Positions 12,772 to 20,045 of a stretch of DNA of 32,000 nucleotides are shown here, one piece after another. A program made the translations under genes and the position numbers. Source of the stretch: Promethearchaeota archaeon. GTDB taxonomy: Archaea > Asgardarchaeota > Odinarchaeia > Odinarchaeales > JBHLKK01. The stretch spans positions 10,447-42,446 of the forward strand of contig JBHLPL010000004.1 in assembly GCA_048939465.1 (NCBI GenBank), in the 5' to 3' direction. The notes below the pieces were generated by a model that made no database searches, was not told the DNA's origin, and saw only the letters and a program-made list of their open reading frames with translations. The first letter of the stretch is position 1; the number at the start of each line of letters is the position of its first letter.

Positions 12772-13137
12772 CTATTCGAGTTGTTCGAGTGCTAATTTCA
12801 GGTTTCTGATGATTAATCCCACGCTGGGAGTAGCATCCTCTCCGGCTATCGCAAGCAGGAATAAGTCGTTGGAGCGTACTAGTATTGCGTGGCCTTCTGC
12901 TCCAGTGACGTGAACAACGCTTACGTTTCCTTTTTCAATGCTATCTGCCAGTTTCTCCGATTCGCTGAGCGTCTTCATCGCAATTTCCGAAATGGCTTTG
13001 TGATCCATTTCAGTTATTGTTTGGCCAGTTATGATTTCTCCGTCTGAGTTGAAAGCGATAATTCCTTCTATCTCGGGAAGGTTATCCATCAGTTTGGCAA
13101 GTACAGATTCTATCTCCTCTTTTTCCGCTTCACTCAT
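12772..13137 (-). CDS. Roadblock/LC7 domain protein (divergent type)
   Basis: Helix then IEGIIAFNSDGEII, long second helix, three strands, C-terminal VGLIIRNLK helix: roadblock topology. Confidence 0.8.
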   Translation of the reverse strand: MSEAEKEEIESVLAKLMDNLPEIEGIIAFNSDGEIITGQTITEMDHKAISEIAMKTLSESEKLADSIEKGNVSVVHVTGAEGHAILVRSNDLFLLAIAGEDATPSVGLIIRNLKLALEQLE

Positions 13138-13179
13138 TGATATCCCTCTTGAACATTATTATGCTCCAACTAATTAATG

Positions 13180-13228
13180 GAATCTCTGATATAAATCCTT
13201 TAACGAATCTCTGATATAAATCCTTTAA
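13180..13228. repeat. Perfect 24-bp tandem direct repeat in the divergent roadblock promoter
   Basis: GAATCTCTGATATAAATCCTTTAA at 13180-13203 and 13205-13228. On the minus strand each copy reads AAAGGA-TTTATAT (BRE/TATA-like). Confidence 0.9.
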
Positions 13229-13368
13229 TATATGAATATCTTAAGTATAATTATTAGTAATTAAACTAATCTATTAGACCCGCGTTGTATGTTGGAGAGT
13301 TCACAATTCGAAAAGAAACTCTAAGCGAGCAGTTGAAATCAAGCAAAAAAGAGCAAAATAGGAGATTA

Positions 13369-13656
13369 ATGATGATAGGACAAGATGATATAAAATCTAC
13401 CTTGAAGAACCTGCAGAAATTCAAAGGAGTACGAGGTGTAATTGTAACCACAACGGAGGGGCTACCAGTTAGCACAACACTCGACGTTGAAAAAACCGAA
13501 AAAACATCGGCACTGGTTACGTCGCTTGTAGGAAAGGCAAGATCTGTCATCAATGAACTGGATGAGGGCGGTCTGAAGTTCCTTACTATATCCACATCGA
13601 GTGGAGAAGTCTACGTAGCGCCAGAAGACGAGTACATACTTATAGTCCTCAAATAA
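13369..13656 (+). CDS. Roadblock/LC7 protein, dynein light chain roadblock (DYNLRB)-like
   Basis: [23 protein letters not shown]...KARS...LKFLTI...[14 protein letters not shown]. Start placed at ATG 13369/13372 after GGAG (ORF track: 13285). Confidence 0.9.
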
Positions 13657-13714
13657 ACAAGATAAAGAATATTTTTATTTATTGACTGAGTTATAAAATG
13701 TAGAGGCGAAAAAA

Positions 13715-14185
13715 TTGATCGATTTGAAATCCTTTGACAAAATCCTGAGTAAGGTCATCAAAAGCGAGACAGGGATAAAGAAGGTAATCCTGGTGGACAG
13801 AACAGGTTTGACAATAGCGCACGTATCGAAGTTTTCCTACTATCCGGTTGACATTGATGGGATTGGTGCTATCGCCAGCGCAGTATTCAGTGCGAGTGAG
13901 GAACAAGGAAAGAATCTTGATATAGGAGATCTCGACCTTGTGACCTCAGAATTCAACGATGGGAAGATATTTGCAGCTAGCTGTGGCAAAGGCGTACTGT
14001 GTGTAGTAACAGACCATGATGTCAACATAGGTATGATCAGACTAGTTATGAAGAAGACGAGTGACGAACTCAGGGAAGTTCTAGAAGAGTTTCTGGCCGA
14101 AAAACCCATAGTACCCGAAGTAACAGCGGAAAAGGATGAAGAAGAGGAAATCAAAACAGCCCTTGGAGAACTCGAAAAAGCCTAA
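13715..14185 (+). CDS. Roadblock/LC7 protein, LAMTOR2/MglB-like, with acidic linker and C-terminal helix
   Basis: VILVDRTGLTIA, IGAIASAVFSASEEQG, VLCVVTDHDVNIGMIRL; C-terminal EEEEIKTALGELEKA. Confidence 0.88.
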   Translation: MIDLKSFDKILSKVIKSETGIKKVILVDRTGLTIAHVSKFSYYPVDIDGIGAIASAVFSASEEQGKNLDIGDLDLVTSEFNDGKIFAASCGKGVLCVVTDHDVNIGMIRLVMKKTSDELREVLEEFLAEKPIVPEVTAEKDEEEEIKTALGELEKA

Positions 14186-14217
14186 TGCTCTGCAAAATTT
14201 CTTGGGAGAAAAATTAT

Positions 14218-14592
14218 ATGTCAACTGCGCCCAAAAGTGAAACGCTTGAAGACATTCTCAAAGACCTTGAGATGAATATTCCGCAAATCCAAGCAACAGC
14301 CATCGTGAGTGTTGAAGGATTGCCCATTGCCTCAGCACTTCCAACTGGAGTTGACGAGGCCATGATTGCTGCTATGACAGCAGCAATGCTTTCTTTGGGA
14401 GAAAGAGCTGCAGCCGAGCTAGGAAAAGGAGAGCTAGAACAGGTGTTCGTAAAGGGGCAGGATGGATACATCATTGCAATGGGGGCAGGGCCTAATGCTG
14501 TATTAACAACCAGTGCTACAAAAGATGCGAAGATCGGTTTAATTTTCTTGGAAATGGAGCGGGCTGCGGAAAAGATTGCAAAATTGGTGTAA
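14218..14592 (+). CDS. Roadblock/LC7 protein, canonical prokaryotic MglB-like type
   Basis: ATAIVSVEGLPIASAL, IAAMTAAMLSLGERAAAELGKGELEQVFVKG, AKIGLIFLEM. Start at ATG 14218. Confidence 0.93.
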   Translation: MSTAPKSETLEDILKDLEMNIPQIQATAIVSVEGLPIASALPTGVDEAMIAAMTAAMLSLGERAAAELGKGELEQVFVKGQDGYIIAMGAGPNAVLTTSATKDAKIGLIFLEMERAAEKIAKLV

Positions 14593-14767: not shown

Positions 14768-15547
14768 ATGGTCAATCTGAAGAAGTTGCTACTAGGGCCA
14801 CTATACAGATTATACAGCTGGCGTCTATGGAAACAGGTTAAGAATGGGAGAAAACCGGGTCATATTGGTGTTATTCTCGACGGTAACAGACGATTTGCTC
14901 GAGAAAGAGGACTGAATGTCTGGATCGGGCATTACTTGGGAGCTGAAAAGGTTAGAGAGTTCCTATCATGGTGCTGGGAGGCAGGAATAAAGGTCGTTAC
15001 ATTATACGCATTTTCCATTGAGAATTTTAGACGTAGGCGAAGGGAAGTCGAAGAGATCATGAAACTGGCCAAGTCAAAATTCGAGGAAGTTCTGGGGGAT
15101 AAGAACATCCACAAATACAAGGTTAAGGTACGGACTATCGGCAGGAGAAACATGCTCCCTAAGGAACTGCAGGACATCGTTCTCAAGATTGAAGAGAACA
15201 CCAAAGGTTACAGCGACCATCTCTTGAACGTTGCGATTGGTTATGGCGGAAGAGCCGAAATTGTTGATGCGTTCAGGAGCATAGCAACAGAAGTCTCAAA
15301 AGGCATTATTAGCCCAGAAGAAGTCAACGAATCGCTTATAGAGAAATACCTTTATACTGCTGGCCTACCCGACCCGGATTTGATAATTAGAACGTCAGGA
15401 GAGGAGAGATTATCTGGATTTCTTCTCTGGCAATCTGCATACTCTGAACTGTACTTCTGTGATGTGTACTGGCCGGCTGTAAGGAAGATTGATTTCTGGC
15501 GGGCCATCAGAATATATCAGCAAAGGGACAGAAGATTTGGGAGTTAG
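14768..15547 (+). CDS. uppS: cis-Prenyltransferase (polyprenyl/undecaprenyl diphosphate synthase)
   Basis: HIGVILDGNRR, TLYAFSIENF, YGGRAEI, PDPDLIIRTSGEERLSGFLLWQSAYSEL. Confidence 0.98.
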   Translation: MVNLKKLLLGPLYRLYSWRLWKQVKNGRKPGHIGVILDGNRRFARERGLNVWIGHYLGAEKVREFLSWCWEAGIKVVTLYAFSIENFRRRRREVEEIMKLAKSKFEEVLGDKNIHKYKVKVRTIGRRNMLPKELQDIVLKIEENTKGYSDHLLNVAIGYGGRAEIVDAFRSIATEVSKGIISPEEVNESLIEKYLYTAGLPDPDLIIRTSGEERLSGFLLWQSAYSELYFCDVYWPAVRKIDFWRAIRIYQQRDRRFGS

Positions 15548-15572
15548 CATGACATAATAGTTAAGGAAGGAA

Positions 15573-16043
15573 ATGACAGTGAGCAGTATAAAGCACGCAA
15601 TAAAAAGACTTCGCAGGATGAAGGGAAAAAGAATCGGTCTGTTGGTAGATGGAAAAAATCTCGGGAATAGCAGAATAGATCTAGAATTAAGGAATATTAA
15701 GGACGTGTTGGAAGAAATAGGCAACCTGAGAGTTGCAAAGGTACTTCTCGATGAACTCCCTTCTGATGATGTATCAAAAGCGATCTCAAAACTTGGCTTC
15801 TTATCGACCGTTTATCTGAATGACATGGACGTCTATATGGCGCTTGAGGCAATGGAATTAGTATATAACGATAAGATTAAGGTAGTAGCGCTTGTTACAG
15901 ACGATGAGAATCTGATACCGATTTTAGTGAAAGCAAAAGAAAGGGGTAAAGAAACAGCCATTGTGGAGACGAGTGAAGGCACCATAGGGGAAGGGCTTAG
16001 GAACTCAGCTGACTATTTCTGTCAGTTCTCGAAAGAAGGTTGA
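15573..16043 (+). CDS. NYN/LabA-DUF88 domain protein (TIGR00288-like)
   Basis: IGLLVDGKNL, DMDVYMALEAMELVYN, ALVTDD, KAKERGKE, LRNSADY. Confidence 0.85.
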   Translation: MTVSSIKHAIKRLRRMKGKRIGLLVDGKNLGNSRIDLELRNIKDVLEEIGNLRVAKVLLDELPSDDVSKAISKLGFLSTVYLNDMDVYMALEAMELVYNDKIKVVALVTDDENLIPILVKAKERGKETAIVETSEGTIGEGLRNSADYFCQFSKEG

Positions 16044-16095
16044 GAGGAATATTGCGCAGCATATCGGCTGATTAATACAGCAATATTGCGTTCTT

Positions 16096-16962
16096 CTAGA
16101 TAAGTCCTTGTTCTAACAACATGGCAAATTCATCAAATGTCAACTTTTCTCCCATTTTTAGCTTCTCGTATGCTCTCCTAGTTTTCTCTTTGAGCAACTC
16201 TTCCTGATGCCTACGCTTTTCTTTCCTTTTGAAGCTCTTTTGCTCATGTATCTTCTGAACCAATTCCCTCATCCGCTTGCGTAATTCCAGATATTTCTGA
16301 TGATAATCATTAGCAATGTTCTTTGTTTCTAAGAACTCTTGGTGCACCGTATCTGCCCTTTCCTTAACACGCTTGGCATTTTCATACAGTTCTATCATCT
16401 TTGTATGATGCTCTTGTGCAATTCTCGCGGATTCTACGATTTCTTTTTTGACAAGAGAAATCGTAGATTTCAGAATTTCAATATTCGTAGACGCTTCGAT
16501 TATTCTCGAATCAACATCATTGTGCTTCTTTTGCTCTCCAAGAGCCATCTCAAGCTCGGAGATTTTGCTAACCAGTTCCCTTTCCTTCTCTGTATCAAGC
16601 ACTGTGGTTTGGATTCTCCATTCCATGTCTTTAATCTGCTGCTGCAGCACGTAAGGAGGCATATTGGGGGCCGTTATCCCTTGTTTCTTTTCCTTGAATT
16701 GCCTAATCCGTTCCACCAATTCGAGTATTTGCTTCCTGAATTTTGCTTTCTTTTCTTTGTTCTCGGCCACTTCTTTGTTCGCTTCGTCTCTAAGCTTCTT
16801 CTCCAACCCTGCCTGACGGATAAGCTCGCTATGCTGCTCGTTAAGATCATTTCGTTCTTCGAGACGCTCCTTAGTTTTTGCGTTGCTTTCATCTCTGAGT
16901 CGTTTCAGCCGTAGAGCTTTCTTCTTAAGCTCTTCAAGTTCACGATCTAGCTCCTCAATCAA
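16096..16962 (-). CDS. Conserved archaeal coiled-coil protein (COG1340-like)
   Basis: All-helical, Glu/Lys-rich; MEWRIQTTVL..EKERELV and C-terminal AYEKLKMGEKLTFDEFAML. Confidence 0.8.
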   Translation of the reverse strand: MIEELDRELEELKKKALRLKRLRDESNAKTKERLEERNDLNEQHSELIRQAGLEKKLRDEANKEVAENKEKKAKFRKQILELVERIRQFKEKKQGITAPNMPPYVLQQQIKDMEWRIQTTVLDTEKERELVSKISELEMALGEQKKHNDVDSRIIEASTNIEILKSTISLVKKEIVESARIAQEHHTKMIELYENAKRVKERADTVHQEFLETKNIANDYHQKYLELRKRMRELVQKIHEQKSFKRKEKRRHQEELLKEKTRRAYEKLKMGEKLTFDEFAMLLEQGLI

Positions 16963-17014
16963 TTCCGCAGCTCCAGATCGGTTTAGATGCTGTAGCTAGA
17001 ACACAAGGAGCTAT

Positions 17015-17022
17015 TTTATAAA
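17015..17022. promoter_or_regulatory. Palindromic TATA box probably shared by divergent genes
   Basis: TTTATAAA lies roughly midway between starts at 16962 (-) and 17062 (+), with an A-rich BRE on the minus side. Confidence 0.55.
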
Positions 17023-17061
17023 CTTTTTTGAACAAATAGTTAGAATAGTTGATTACGGACT

Positions 17062-18285
17062 GTGGGAGGCGATTCTCTGAAACCACCGAGAGAGCTTTAT
17101 CCAATCCTGGCCTCAATGGAGTTTACTCCCAAGGCGAAGGCTCTCTTGAATCGATTTGCAACTATTCAGATCGCAGAGATGGAGAAAACAAAAGGATTGT
17201 CTGTTAAAGGCAAGTGGTATTGCTCTCTATTATCTCTATTCTCGAGAGTGATTGCCGAAAGACGGAGTCATAAGACCGTTGAGGAACTTGATGTTGAGGC
17301 TGCAGTGGTCCTCCACCACTATCTTATCACGCGTCCACAAATTGCAAGAATGGTGGAAGATGACAGACTGGGATTCTTCAAGCAACAAGTAAAGACTGCA
17401 ACAGAGTTCTATGAATCCTTAATCGGAATTGATGTGGGACCTCAGGAGCTGGATCGATTAGCCGAAATTAGAAGTAATACATTCAGGTTCGTTAGTGAAA
17501 TCGAAGAGATACCTCCAGATACGGTTTCAGAGATAGTCTCTAATATTGAAGATGTAGTAATGATGTTCATGTATTTACTCGTGAGCAATGAGGAGAAGTC
17601 GAAGATCGATATAGAAGACATAAACCGGGCGTACAGGCTATTTAGGATGATTACATTCAGAACGCCGTTATTGGATTTTGATACATTACATGATCTTTAC
17701 CGCCTCTTACAGACTAATATCTATTCAAAAATGGATCGTCTAGAGATTAGTAGTACAAGTGAAGAATATCTCCAAGAGATTGTGAAAAAGGAAATGGACA
17801 TTAAAGAAGATAAGGATCTCCAAAAAGAAAGTAGTAACTGGGAAGATATCCTTAAGGGGTGTATTCTGAGCATAGCTCAGATTTACAGTGTCAAGAAAAA
17901 TGGTCTGAAAATAGGTAAAAGGGACCTAGACAACGCAGTTAGTATTTATCATAGAATATTGAATAAACTGATAGAAGACTTCGATGCCAAGGAAAAGGAA
18001 TCGCTTTATGGCTTCATAAGAAATTTAAGCTTCAGTCTGGAATCAGAAAACGCATTAGCAGGATATAGAAGATGGTTATTAAGCGCGATCTCAGCTACAG
18101 CGGGTAGCGGTGCCATATTTAGGTATTCCAGCTTCGTTTTTAAACAGTCCCGCATGGTCGCCCTGTTTTCAGCCATAATGGCCTATAAGAATCAGCATGA
18201 AGTGGTGACCGTTGATGATATCAAGAAAGGGACACAAGTATACACGCACGTGCTATTGGATTTTGATTTTGATGCTCTAACCTAA
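17062..18285 (+). CDS. Hypothetical protein of four tandem ~100-aa helical repeats (AAA+ lid-like)
   Basis: Long ORF with a recurring [VI]xxxD[VIL]xx[AG] motif at D77, D186, D288 and D386, and a matching N-terminal helix start in each unit. Confidence 0.85.
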   Translation: MGGDSLKPPRELYPILASMEFTPKAKALLNRFATIQIAEMEKTKGLSVKGKWYCSLLSLFSRVIAERRSHKTVEELDVEAAVVLHHYLITRPQIARMVEDDRLGFFKQQVKTATEFYESLIGIDVGPQELDRLAEIRSNTFRFVSEIEEIPPDTVSEIVSNIEDVVMMFMYLLVSNEEKSKIDIEDINRAYRLFRMITFRTPLLDFDTLHDLYRLLQTNIYSKMDRLEISSTSEEYLQEIVKKEMDIKEDKDLQKESSNWEDILKGCILSIAQIYSVKKNGLKIGKRDLDNAVSIYHRILNKLIEDFDAKEKESLYGFIRNLSFSLESENALAGYRRWLLSAISATAGSGAIFRYSSFVFKQSRMVALFSAIMAYKNQHEVVTVDDIKKGTQVYTHVLLDFDFDALT

Positions 18286-18518
18286 TCTTCTTGCGATCCT
18301 GGCTTGTTTATGAGAACTATGTCTCCTACTGCAGCAATCCAGGTGTATGGCATTTTAAGAAGATTGTGGTCTCTGACTGTTTGCTTGAGTTTTATAGTTA
18401 CGTGGGGCAGTGTGCCTGACTCAAAATCAACAGAAATGTCAATGATTTTCCCAACCAACTTCCCAATCAAGGAGTAGACCAGTTTTCCTTTGAGGTTAGA
18501 TATCTTTATACTGATGAT
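18282..18518 (-). CDS. PRC-barrel domain protein (COG1873/YlmC-like), non-canonical start
   Basis: Extending the ORF-track frame upstream gives ISIKISNLKGKLVYSLIGKLVGKIIDISVDFESG...MPYTWIAAVGDIVLI, a complete PRC-barrel pattern. Frame is closed by TAA at 18521-18519; G6 SD at 18529-18524. Confidence 0.85.
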   Translation of the reverse strand: MISIKISNLKGKLVYSLIGKLVGKIIDISVDFESGTLPHVTIKLKQTVRDHNLLKMPYTWIAAVGDIVLINKPGSQED

Positions 18519-18528
18519 TTATTCCCCC

Positions 18529-19236
18529 CTATTTTGATTTGAGTATGATTCTTGAATCTATAGCTATGGCGCCTTTTTCATAGACTATCGTTGGATTTAG
18601 ATCTATCTGGGCAATCTCTTCGTTAGCGCCAACTAAATCGGAGACTCCTAGCAGTATATTTACGACCGCGTTAAAGTCAGCAGGTGGTATTCCTCTGTAG
18701 CCACGGAGAATAGGATAAGCTCTGATTTCCTTTGTCATGTCTTGAGCTTCTCGTTTAGTTATTGGAAGTAGCCTAAAGCTAACATCTTTGAGCAGTTCCA
18801 CAAAAACGCCGCCAAGGCCAAACATTATCGTGGGACCAAATTGGGGGTCAAGTGTCATACCTATGATTACCTCAGCGAGCCCTTTAGGACTGAAATGATA
18901 TACCATAATGCCAATGATTTTTGCATCGGGGACCTTTGATTTCACGCTGCCCATAATAGCCTTGAAGGCATCCTTGACTTCCTGAGCATTTTTGAGATTT
19001 AATTTGACACCGCCAACATCTGTCTTATGTATTATGCCGGGAGAGACCACCTTTAATACGACTGGATATTTCACTTTTTCAGCGATGCCTACAGCTTCGT
19101 CAGCAGTTTGTGCTATGTCAAATGTCGTCGTAGGTATCCCGAACTCACGAATGAGTTCCTTAGATTCGTGCTCCATGAGAAAGACTCTTTCCTCAGATAT
19201 TGCCGTTTTAATAATCTTTCTTGCCTGCAAATTCAT
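18529..19236 (-). CDS. acdB: ADP-forming acyl-CoA synthetase beta subunit (ATP-grasp)
   Basis: EHESKELIREFGIP, YPVVLKVVSPGIIHKTDVGGV, DPQFGPTIMFGLGG, IDLNP, AIDSRI. Start placed at ATG 19236 after GGTGGG (ORF track: 19416). Confidence 0.93.
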   Translation of the reverse strand: MNLQARKIIKTAISEERVFLMEHESKELIREFGIPTTTFDIAQTADEAVGIAEKVKYPVVLKVVSPGIIHKTDVGGVKLNLKNAQEVKDAFKAIMGSVKSKVPDAKIIGIMVYHFSPKGLAEVIIGMTLDPQFGPTIMFGLGGVFVELLKDVSFRLLPITKREAQDMTKEIRAYPILRGYRGIPPADFNAVVNILLGVSDLVGANEEIAQIDLNPTIVYEKGAIAIDSRIILKSK

Positions 19237-19283
19237 AATTCTGCCCACCGTCATTATATGTAAATGAAGTATTTGAAGATTTT

Positions 19284-20045
19284 TTACACGCCAATATCCT
19301 CTCCTCCCCAAAAGATTCTTGAGAGCTCCGCGTACAGATTCTCCAGTCCTGTATTTCTTGATGCCGAGACGGGGAGAAGAATGTTGAATGCTTCTAGTTG
19401 GCCTAGTGCACGACATATTTCTATGCTAATTTCCTTCCGTAACCCCGCTGTCTCCTCCCTCACTGCCCCTAATAGCTCATACGGATCTTCAGACCAGTTC
19501 AGCAGTCTCTCGATTTCAGCATCCGATAGCAGATCGGATTTGGAGAGGATATTTAGCTGGGGAATTGAAAAGCGATATTGCGTTGATGCACCAAGAAGTA
19601 ATAAAGAAACGAAATCAGAGGGGCGTTTTGCCAAAATAGGATCTACGAGAAAAAGGAGAGTCCTTTGTGATCCTCCAAGCGTAGTTACTATGAAGGGACC
19701 AGAACTCCTGAAAGTGAAAAGCTCCATTTGCCCAGGAGTGTCGACAAGAATGAATTCGGGCCGCAGTTCTTCAATCTCGTCTTTGATCTCCCCAATTTTC
19801 TCGGCTATCATGTCGGCAGAGAAAATTAGGGCTCCATTTGGACCCAGACCGTATTCTCGCATGATCCTATCAATATCTATGAAATCCCTTACATCAACAT
19901 CGGGTGAATAGGGCAATTGAATAACGCTTGGATCTAGATTCACAGTCGCCAGATCTACATTATTTGCCCTTAGCCATTCTGAAAATGAAGATGTTAGACT
20001 CGACTTGCCAGACCCTGCAGTCCCCAAAACATAAACCGAAACCAT
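19284..20045 (-). CDS. GPN-loop GTPase (archaeal PAB0955-like)
   Basis: GTAGSGKSS, VNLDP, GLGPNG (GPN loop), DTPGQMELF, LSKSDL, VSA. Confidence 0.96.
   Translation of the reverse strand: MVSVYVLGTAGSGKSSLTSSFSEWLRANNVDLATVNLDPSVIQLPYSPDVDVRDFIDIDRIMREYGLGPNGALIFSADMIAEKIGEIKDEIEELRPEFILVDTPGQMELFTFRSSGPFIVTTLGGSQRTLLFLVDPILAKRPSDFVSLLLLGASTQYRFSIPQLNILSKSDLLSDAEIERLLNWSEDPYELLGAVREETAGLRKEISIEICRALGQLEAFNILLPVSASRNTGLENLYAELSRIFWGGEDIGV

Follow-up and report, generated by a model that had tools for sequence, protein, structure and literature searches.

A four-gene roadblock cluster in an Odinarchaeia genome is the GTPase-unlinked form of a conserved Asgard module of an MglA-type GTPase and four roadblocks

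The stretch of 32,000 nucleotides analyzed here (the window) belongs to contig JBHLPL010000004.1 of a Promethearchaeota archaeon (assembly GCA_048939465.1, positions 10,447 to 42,446) and carries four different roadblock/LC7 genes, hereafter named A, B, C and D. Comparison with other Asgard genomes showed that this quartet is the derived, GTPase-unlinked form, found in the Odin order, of a conserved Asgard module composed of four roadblock genes and a gene for an MglA-type GTPase, hereafter named G. The conserved gene set names one GTPase and four specific partners. Such information is scarce, as genome layout rarely reveals which Asgard GTPase pairs with which roadblock or longin regulator, and the layout of the MK-D1 genome does not pair GTPases with their regulators (Tran et al. 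2024, PMC10933270). Liu et al. (bioRxiv 2020) count three families of Roadblock/longin proteins and two of GTPases among the core Asgard genes, and a Thorarchaeota MglA was modelled with a roadblock dimer (2026 paper, PMC13408092). The five-gene cluster is not described in the text consulted from the preprint of Liu et al. Our literature searches found no published description of it, and a search for papers that cite PDB entries 7F8F, 7F8M, 9JUE or 9JQ8 yielded nothing relevant.

The products of all four genes exceeded the 23-bit cut-off of the Robl_LC7 model (Pfam PF03259), with 31 bits for A, 71.9 bits for B, 44.5 bits for C and 62.9 bits for D. Gene A (12772..13137, minus strand, 121 amino acids) is transcribed divergently from B, which is followed by C and D on the plus strand. 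Gene B (13369..13656, 94-95 amino acids) encodes the short RBLC7 form, gene C (13715..14185, 156 amino acids) a roadblock domain followed by a flexible linker and a conserved C-terminal helix, and gene D (14218..14592, 124 amino acids) a full-length roadblock. Alignments of orthologues led us to reset two starts: that of B, listed as open reading frame 13285-13656, to the ATG at 13369/13372, preceded by AGGAG, and that of D, listed as 14185-14592, to the ATG at 14218, preceded by GGGAG. Genes C and D therefore do not overlap and are separated by a spacer of 32 bp (14186..14217), which is the position occupied by the MglA-type gene (about 195 amino acids) in most other Asgard classes. The whole genome (1.96 Mb, 91% complete) contains only eight Robl_LC7 matches, four of them inside 1.8 kb of the window, so this grouping is not due to chance. 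Cross-scores among A, B, C and D ranged from 14 to 36 bits, compared with 180-320 bits for self or orthologue, and the four genes are thus old paralogues rather than recent copies. The first-pass annotation of the window had proposed four distinct roadblock genes, one of them on the minus strand, and this description proved accurate. All four are under strong purifying selection, the ratio of nonsynonymous to synonymous substitutions (dN/dS) against a genome of the same genus being 0.08 for A, 0.02 for B, 0.01 for C and 0.02 for D.

The types of the four proteins were assigned from profile-to-PDB and Pfam scores. Roadblock B matched PDB entry 7F8F, a 94-residue Odin-type sequence, with 77% identity (E 3.5e-41), mammalian DYNLRB1 with E values of 4-5e-18 and fly DYNLRB with about 4e-18. 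In the alignment with DYNLRB1 (2E8J), 37 of the 88 aligned query residues were identical (42%), and residues 7-94 of the 95 of B paired with residues 3-91 of the 96 of DYNLRB1, giving the two proteins a common C-terminal end point. B ends after the last strand and lacks the C-terminal helix; both its sequence and its length are those of a DYNLRB/LC7 protein. Bacterial MglB was absent from the PDB matches of B up to E = 1, and B scored 18.7 bits on the LAMTOR5 model, under the cut-off of 27. The gene was detected in 177 of 201 genomes of the phylum. Tran et al. reported that the RBLC7 protein of Odin LCB_4 crystallized as a homodimer, as did the Thor and MK-D1 roadblocks, and proposed that the short Odin dimer offers a helix-binding site (PMC10933270). 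Going by an accession link that we infer, this protein is probably entry 7F8F and hence an orthologue of B. The likeness of B to DYNLRB1/2 (LC7) would then extend from its length, end point and identity to the homodimeric state of its presumed orthologue.

Roadblock C gave matches on two sides. On the Pfam model of LAMTOR3 (MAPKK1_Int, PF08923), C scored 34.5 bits, above the cut-off of 25 and below its own Robl_LC7 score, and all 15 of the 15 C orthologues matched this model (E <= 1e-3). On the NCBIfam model of Thermus-type MglB (NF052242), to which A, B and D gave no match, C scored 33.1 bits (E 5e-8) over positions 18-157 of 161, far under the equivalog cut-off of 200 bits. Judged by this model, C resembles MglB without being an MglB orthologue. 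The profile of C matched MglB at 1e-5 and LAMTOR2 at 1e-3 in the PDB. Its AlphaFold2 model (predicted local distance difference test, pLDDT, 76.8) showed a full roadblock fold, a helix at residues 105-127 and a terminal helix at residues 139-155; the low-confidence stretch between fold and terminal helix (130-139) was read as a flexible linker. The solved folds nearest to this model were LAMTOR2 (6B9X_B, the top match) and MglB (3T1R_A), at about equal distance. C therefore sits equally near MglB and LAMTOR2/3. It is also the most conserved member of the quartet, with 65-79% identity across Asgard classes. The terminal helix (14129..14179, plus strand), supported by both the predicted structure and the conservation of its motif, follows a linker of variable sequence and carries an acidic, leucine-rich E-E-L-K-x-A-L-x-E-L-E-K motif, found in all classes examined apart from Loki.

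Two observations concern the variation of C among genomes. Loki-type C proteins (L075, L078, L093 and L108) have a shorter acidic tail of the L-D-L-S-D-L-D type in place of the motif, and these are also the lineages in which the gene cluster is fully dispersed. In one Thor-like metagenome-assembled genome (MAG; G011, L013:871-1577), the C orthologue is split into two overlapping frames, which is a probable frameshift or assembly error.

The remaining two roadblocks showed matches of another kind. The profile of D matched 7F8M (4e-31), 9JUE (5e-29), the actinobacterial CvnB5 (3LEQ, 6e-16), Rv3364c (1e-13) and MglB (6e-7), and that of A matched 9JQ8 (1e-26), 7F8M (1e-13) and CvnB5 (2e-6), with no eukaryotic chain among the PDB matches of either profile. 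By these matches, A and D class as prokaryotic CvnB/MglB-type roadblocks. Both are full-length, the A profile spanning residues 2-112 of the 113 of 9JQ8 and the D profile residues 3-118 of the 120 of 7F8M, so the quartet comprises three full-length roadblocks (A, C and D) and a single short one (B). A is the least conserved of the four, with 33-45% identity across Asgard classes. The actinobacterial conservon roadblocks CvnB/MfpD, to which A and D are related by these matches, also regulate a GTPase of the MglA family; unlike the conservon, the quartet cluster contains no gene for a histidine-kinase-like CvnA or for CvnC. The Thor roadblock of entry 7F8M was considered as an orthologue of D, an assignment by which D would have counted as a proven homodimer, and rejected, since a D protein of the Thor lineage itself scored only 62.6 bits against 7F8M, which makes the latter a paralogue. 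The type labels of the first-pass annotation thus need partial revision: DYNLRB-like holds for B, LAMTOR2-like describes C only in part, given its MglB-like architecture beside its LAMTOR2/3 matches, and D and A are better described as CvnB/MglB-type.

We then evaluated the conservation of the gene order. A search with the alignment of C retrieved a set of 80 named loci, with 63-80% identity, from records labelled Odin, Frey, Jord, Borr, Baldr, Thor, Hermod, Wukong, Sif, Hel, Loki, Heimdall and Hod. The gene G, of about 195 amino acids, is located directly after C in 31 of these 80 loci, which carry the labels Frey, Jord, Borr, Baldr, Thor, Hermod, Wukong and Hod. The order B-C-G-D was found in 27 of the 31, and 23 have A upstream on the opposite strand: 18 show exactly the arrangement A(-) B(+) C(+) G(+) D(+), three contain an extra paralogue and two, of the Wukong type, have D inverted. 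Five loci of the B-C-G-D order lack A, two loci of the Hod type read C-G-D and one short locus reads B-C-G. Across the complete set, A occupies the same divergent position in 27 of the 80 loci. Gene C adjoins B in all 30 loci fetched around B (30/30). In other classes D follows G directly; only in Odin-order loci (six genomes, four named records) is C directly followed by D, with a gap of about 31-32 bp. The cluster of the Odin order matches the five-gene cluster found elsewhere in its four orthologous roadblock families and in their order and orientation, and differs from it by this gap and by having G outside. The conservation of gene order across Asgard lineages, put forward earlier as a check, was thus observed.

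Other lineages have lost more of this arrangement. In Heimdall, C(+) and B(-) are convergent and G is missing from the locus. In Loki and Hel, C stands alone, with G, D and usually A-type genes elsewhere in the genome. Loki and Heimdall genomes retain C, D, G and usually A-type genes in a scattered form, so action in trans would be common among these archaea. These arrangements are most simply explained by an ancestral A(-) B C G D cluster and several different routes of decay, only G having left it in the Odin order. The earlier picture of a Ragulator-like cluster free of any GTPase is not supported by these data: an MglA-type gene lies between C and D in most Asgard classes, and its absence from the window is a secondary feature of the Odin order.

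We next considered the small GTPases of the genome. It contains 18 Ras/Arf-like matches, several with E values of about 1e-50, an expansion of the kind described for Asgard archaea. None of the 18 is located on the contig of the window (C84), in agreement with the earlier remark that the cluster contains no small GTPase. Matches to the Gtr1_RagA model reached at most 27 bits and overlapped sites where the Ras and/or Arf models scored higher; none was found on the contig of the window. The best PDB matches of G were MglA of Thermus (2e-35) and of Myxococcus (4e-33). The motifs G-R-T-L-F-F-D (G2) and T-V-A-G-Q (G3) are present both in the cluster-borne G of relatives and in the unlinked copy of this genome. 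According to Wuichet and Søgaard-Andersen (PMC4316618), Group-1 MglA proteins are marked by an arginine adjacent to the threonine of G2 and by the sequence T-V-x-G-Q in G3. From sequence, G is accordingly classed as an MglA-type, Group-1-like GTPase. An orthologue, 49-52% identical to a Thor-type G, was found in six of the six Odin-order genomes searched and is intact in five of them. It lies 141 kb from the quartet in a closed genome of this order. In the present genome it is found on another contig (C49:11317-11868), between membrane-protein genes on one side and, on the other, a long open reading frame whose sequence suggests an arginyl-tRNA ligase.

The copy of G in this genome contains a single in-frame TAA codon (L111:1819-1821) where its relatives have a leucine. 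Contigs from four other studies could be aligned on the G locus of C49. Two cover the site of the stop and read T there (TTA, leucine), and the other two break at the site. Three more differences within 90 bases of the stop are common to all four contigs, and two of these turn a local R-M into I-L, as in orthologues of the same genus. Given the TTA codon in two studies and the nearby differences shared by all four, the TAA probably reflects a local error in the MAG or variation between strains, and the loss of MglA in this organism was rejected as the likeliest reading.

Three Odinarchaeum-type orthologues of G (L115, L116 and L117) end with a basic stretch and a terminal cysteine (K-x-K-C), a feature missing from the copies of the same genus. 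This cysteine is a possible lipidation site. No terminal cysteines were reported for the small GTPases of MK-D1 (Tran et al., PMC10933270).

Taken together, the gene types, the synteny and the relocation of G make it probable that the four roadblocks are the conserved partners of a single MglA-type GTPase, with an ancestral gene arrangement A(-) B C G D and, here, with action in trans. Action in trans on a GTPase had been suggested in the first-pass annotation, and the fact that none is encoded nearby agrees with it. After G moved out of the cluster in the Odin order, the roadblocks would act on it from a distance. If they behave like bacterial MglB, dimers of the roadblocks would bind GTP-bound G at its switch regions and control its nucleotide state; such contacts, together with a GTPase-activating (GAP) or guanine-nucleotide exchange (GEF) activity and a cellular output, are what this reading would predict. 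C is the best candidate for a direct MglB-like regulator of G, because it has the architecture of MglB, in which a flexible linker also joins the roadblock domain to a C-terminal helix. In Myxococcus, the equivalent helix of MglB reportedly binds MglA allosterically. D, whose gene comes right after G elsewhere, may serve as a second platform subunit, B as a short roadblock whose helix-binding face is open, and A as a divergent adaptor. The first-pass annotation had suggested that the proteins may form defined heterodimers or a heterotetramer. A complex prediction of A, B and D with C as the partner (four chains, each with its own alignment) gave an ipSAE (interaction prediction score from aligned errors) of 0.01 and a mark of 0.32, values that weigh neither for nor against binding.

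A close parallel to this reading is the bacterial MglA/MglB(/MglC) system (Thermus thermophilus 3T12/3T1Q; Myxococcus xanthus 6IZW/6H5B), with which the other Asgard classes share an MglA-like GTPase gene beside roadblock genes. The Asgard set differs from it by its four different roadblock paralogues, where the bacterial system has one or two; none of the four reaches the equivalog cut-off of MglB (33 vs 200 bits), and one is DYNLRB-like. In the present genome the bacterial adjacency is also lost, as G and the quartet lie on different contigs (C49 vs C84). We know of no motility or polarity output of MglA and its roadblocks in these archaea.

Several observations weigh against a quartet devoted to G. 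Two families of the phylum keep a G-like GTPase (45-49% identity) and lack orthologue-level B and C, with best B/C scores of 35 and 59 bits; these are f17 (G021, G032, G051, G077, G099) and f20 (G042, G059, G065, G071, G089, G094, G104), together 12 MAGs that are 66-91% complete. G can therefore do without B and C. The identity of C across classes is also higher than that of G (about 45-56%), which hints at constraints on C beyond serving G. Heimdall keeps B beside C at a locus that lacks G. Finally, the Odin LCB_4, Thor and MK-D1 roadblocks cited above crystallized as homodimers after being expressed alone (PMC10933270). The first three of these points keep alive the idea of a separate scaffold made of B and C.

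According to that alternative, B and C, perhaps joined by A and D, would make up a scaffold that works independently of a GTPase, in the manner of Ragulator or a dynein light chain. The open groove of the B dimer would take a helix from a partner, possibly the C-terminal helix of C, and the assembly would recruit other proteins or other GTPases. The B-C adjacency is indeed the most persistent link of the cluster, found in every one of the B loci and surviving in the convergent pair of Heimdall, while the persistence of G in f17 and f20 in the absence of B and C also speaks for it. The relationship of B to DYNLRB1, the LAMTOR3 matches of all C orthologues, the LAMTOR2 fold as top match of C and the helix-binding site proposed for the Odin RBLC7 dimer (Tran et al., PMC10933270) are consistent with it as well. 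Ragulator (LAMTOR1-5) likewise brings together a number of distinct roadblock subunits, among them a short form that lacks the C-terminal helix. However, its two full-length (LAMTOR2/3) and two short (LAMTOR4/5) roadblocks do not correspond to the three and one of the quartet, and its partner is a Rag/Gtr heterodimer with roadblock C-terminal domains, whereas the GTPase tied to the quartet by gene order is of the single-domain MglA type. C, moreover, resembles MglB as much as LAMTOR2. The model (PF15454) of LAMTOR1, the scaffold protein wrapped around the roadblock dimers of Ragulator, matched nothing in the genome, which counts little since it gave no match in controls either. As for the dynein side, to our knowledge neither a dynein motor nor an intermediate chain occurs in archaea. 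We regard a GTPase-independent scaffold as unlikely. The first-pass annotation had termed the cluster a possible proto-Ragulator, and of this proposal the presence of several distinct and ancient roadblock types stands, while the subunit composition and the kind of GTPase do not follow it.

Alternatively, the four roadblocks could be independent homodimers, each serving its own GTPase among the roughly 18 Ras-like ones or some other partner, their adjacency being an inherited gene order. Solved Asgard roadblocks, which include the presumed B orthologue and D/A-like paralogues, are homodimeric (9JUE by its entry title; Thor-RB, MKD1-RB and Odin-RBLC7, PMC10933270), Loki genomes scatter all members, and the GTPases of MK-D1 are generally not in operons with roadblocks (Tran et al., PMC10933270). 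Against this, four paralogues and G share one order with short spacers in at least seven differently labelled classes. Without selection for co-expression, such an order is difficult to maintain. In addition, homodimers of proteins expressed alone leave heteromers possible; LAMTOR and MglB/MglC partners, too, were initially observed individually. Fully independent partners thus appear quite improbable.

A bolder proposal makes the quartet a pre-eukaryotic hetero-oligomeric platform, in which the helix of C sits in the groove of B, in the manner of LAMTOR1 and the dynein intermediate chain in eukaryotes. Together with A and D, this pair would form a Ragulator-like stack controlling MglA and perhaps further Ras-like GTPases. 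We consider this improbable at present. If true, the quartet would be a prokaryotic forerunner of both the roadblock light chain of dynein and Ragulator.

Returning to the partner set of MglA, the Odin order offers a natural unlinking experiment, in which the roadblock genes stayed together, intact and under strong purifying selection after G had left. The set joins an archaeal protein 42% identical to human DYNLRB1 with a roadblock midway between MglB and LAMTOR2/3. Because it includes these two proteins, its reconstitution would give a direct view of the relationship between eukaryotic roadblock platforms and the prokaryotic MglA/MglB switch.

The surroundings of the quartet are themselves partly conserved. 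Downstream of D (14768-20045) come a cis-prenyltransferase gene (UPP synthase family), an NYN-domain gene, a DUF7121 coiled-coil gene on the opposite strand and a GPN-loop GTPase gene (19284-20045, minus strand), and this order is kept in genomes of the Thor/Hermod, Baldr and present Odin types (L047-L065). The GPN-loop protein, 4.7 kb downstream of the quartet, is the only GTPase encoded in the window. Despite this synteny in several classes it was not adopted as the partner, as it belongs to a different GTPase class, and we know of no link between GPN-loop GTPases and roadblocks. The nearest public record, JBHLKK010000012.1, encodes a C protein 97% identical to that of the window and has the same gene order from ScpB to a 407-amino-acid protein. 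It is labelled Candidatus Hodarchaeota, and its genus is grouped in the same order as genomes labelled Odinarchaeota; the label is probably wrong or outdated. Lastly, the divergent intergenic region between A and B contains a perfect tandem duplication (13180-13228) of a 24-nucleotide unit with a spacing of 25, which includes a TATA-like TATAAAT. It was not found in the equivalent region of one genome of the same genus and one Odinarchaeum-type genome, and may represent a duplicated promoter element.

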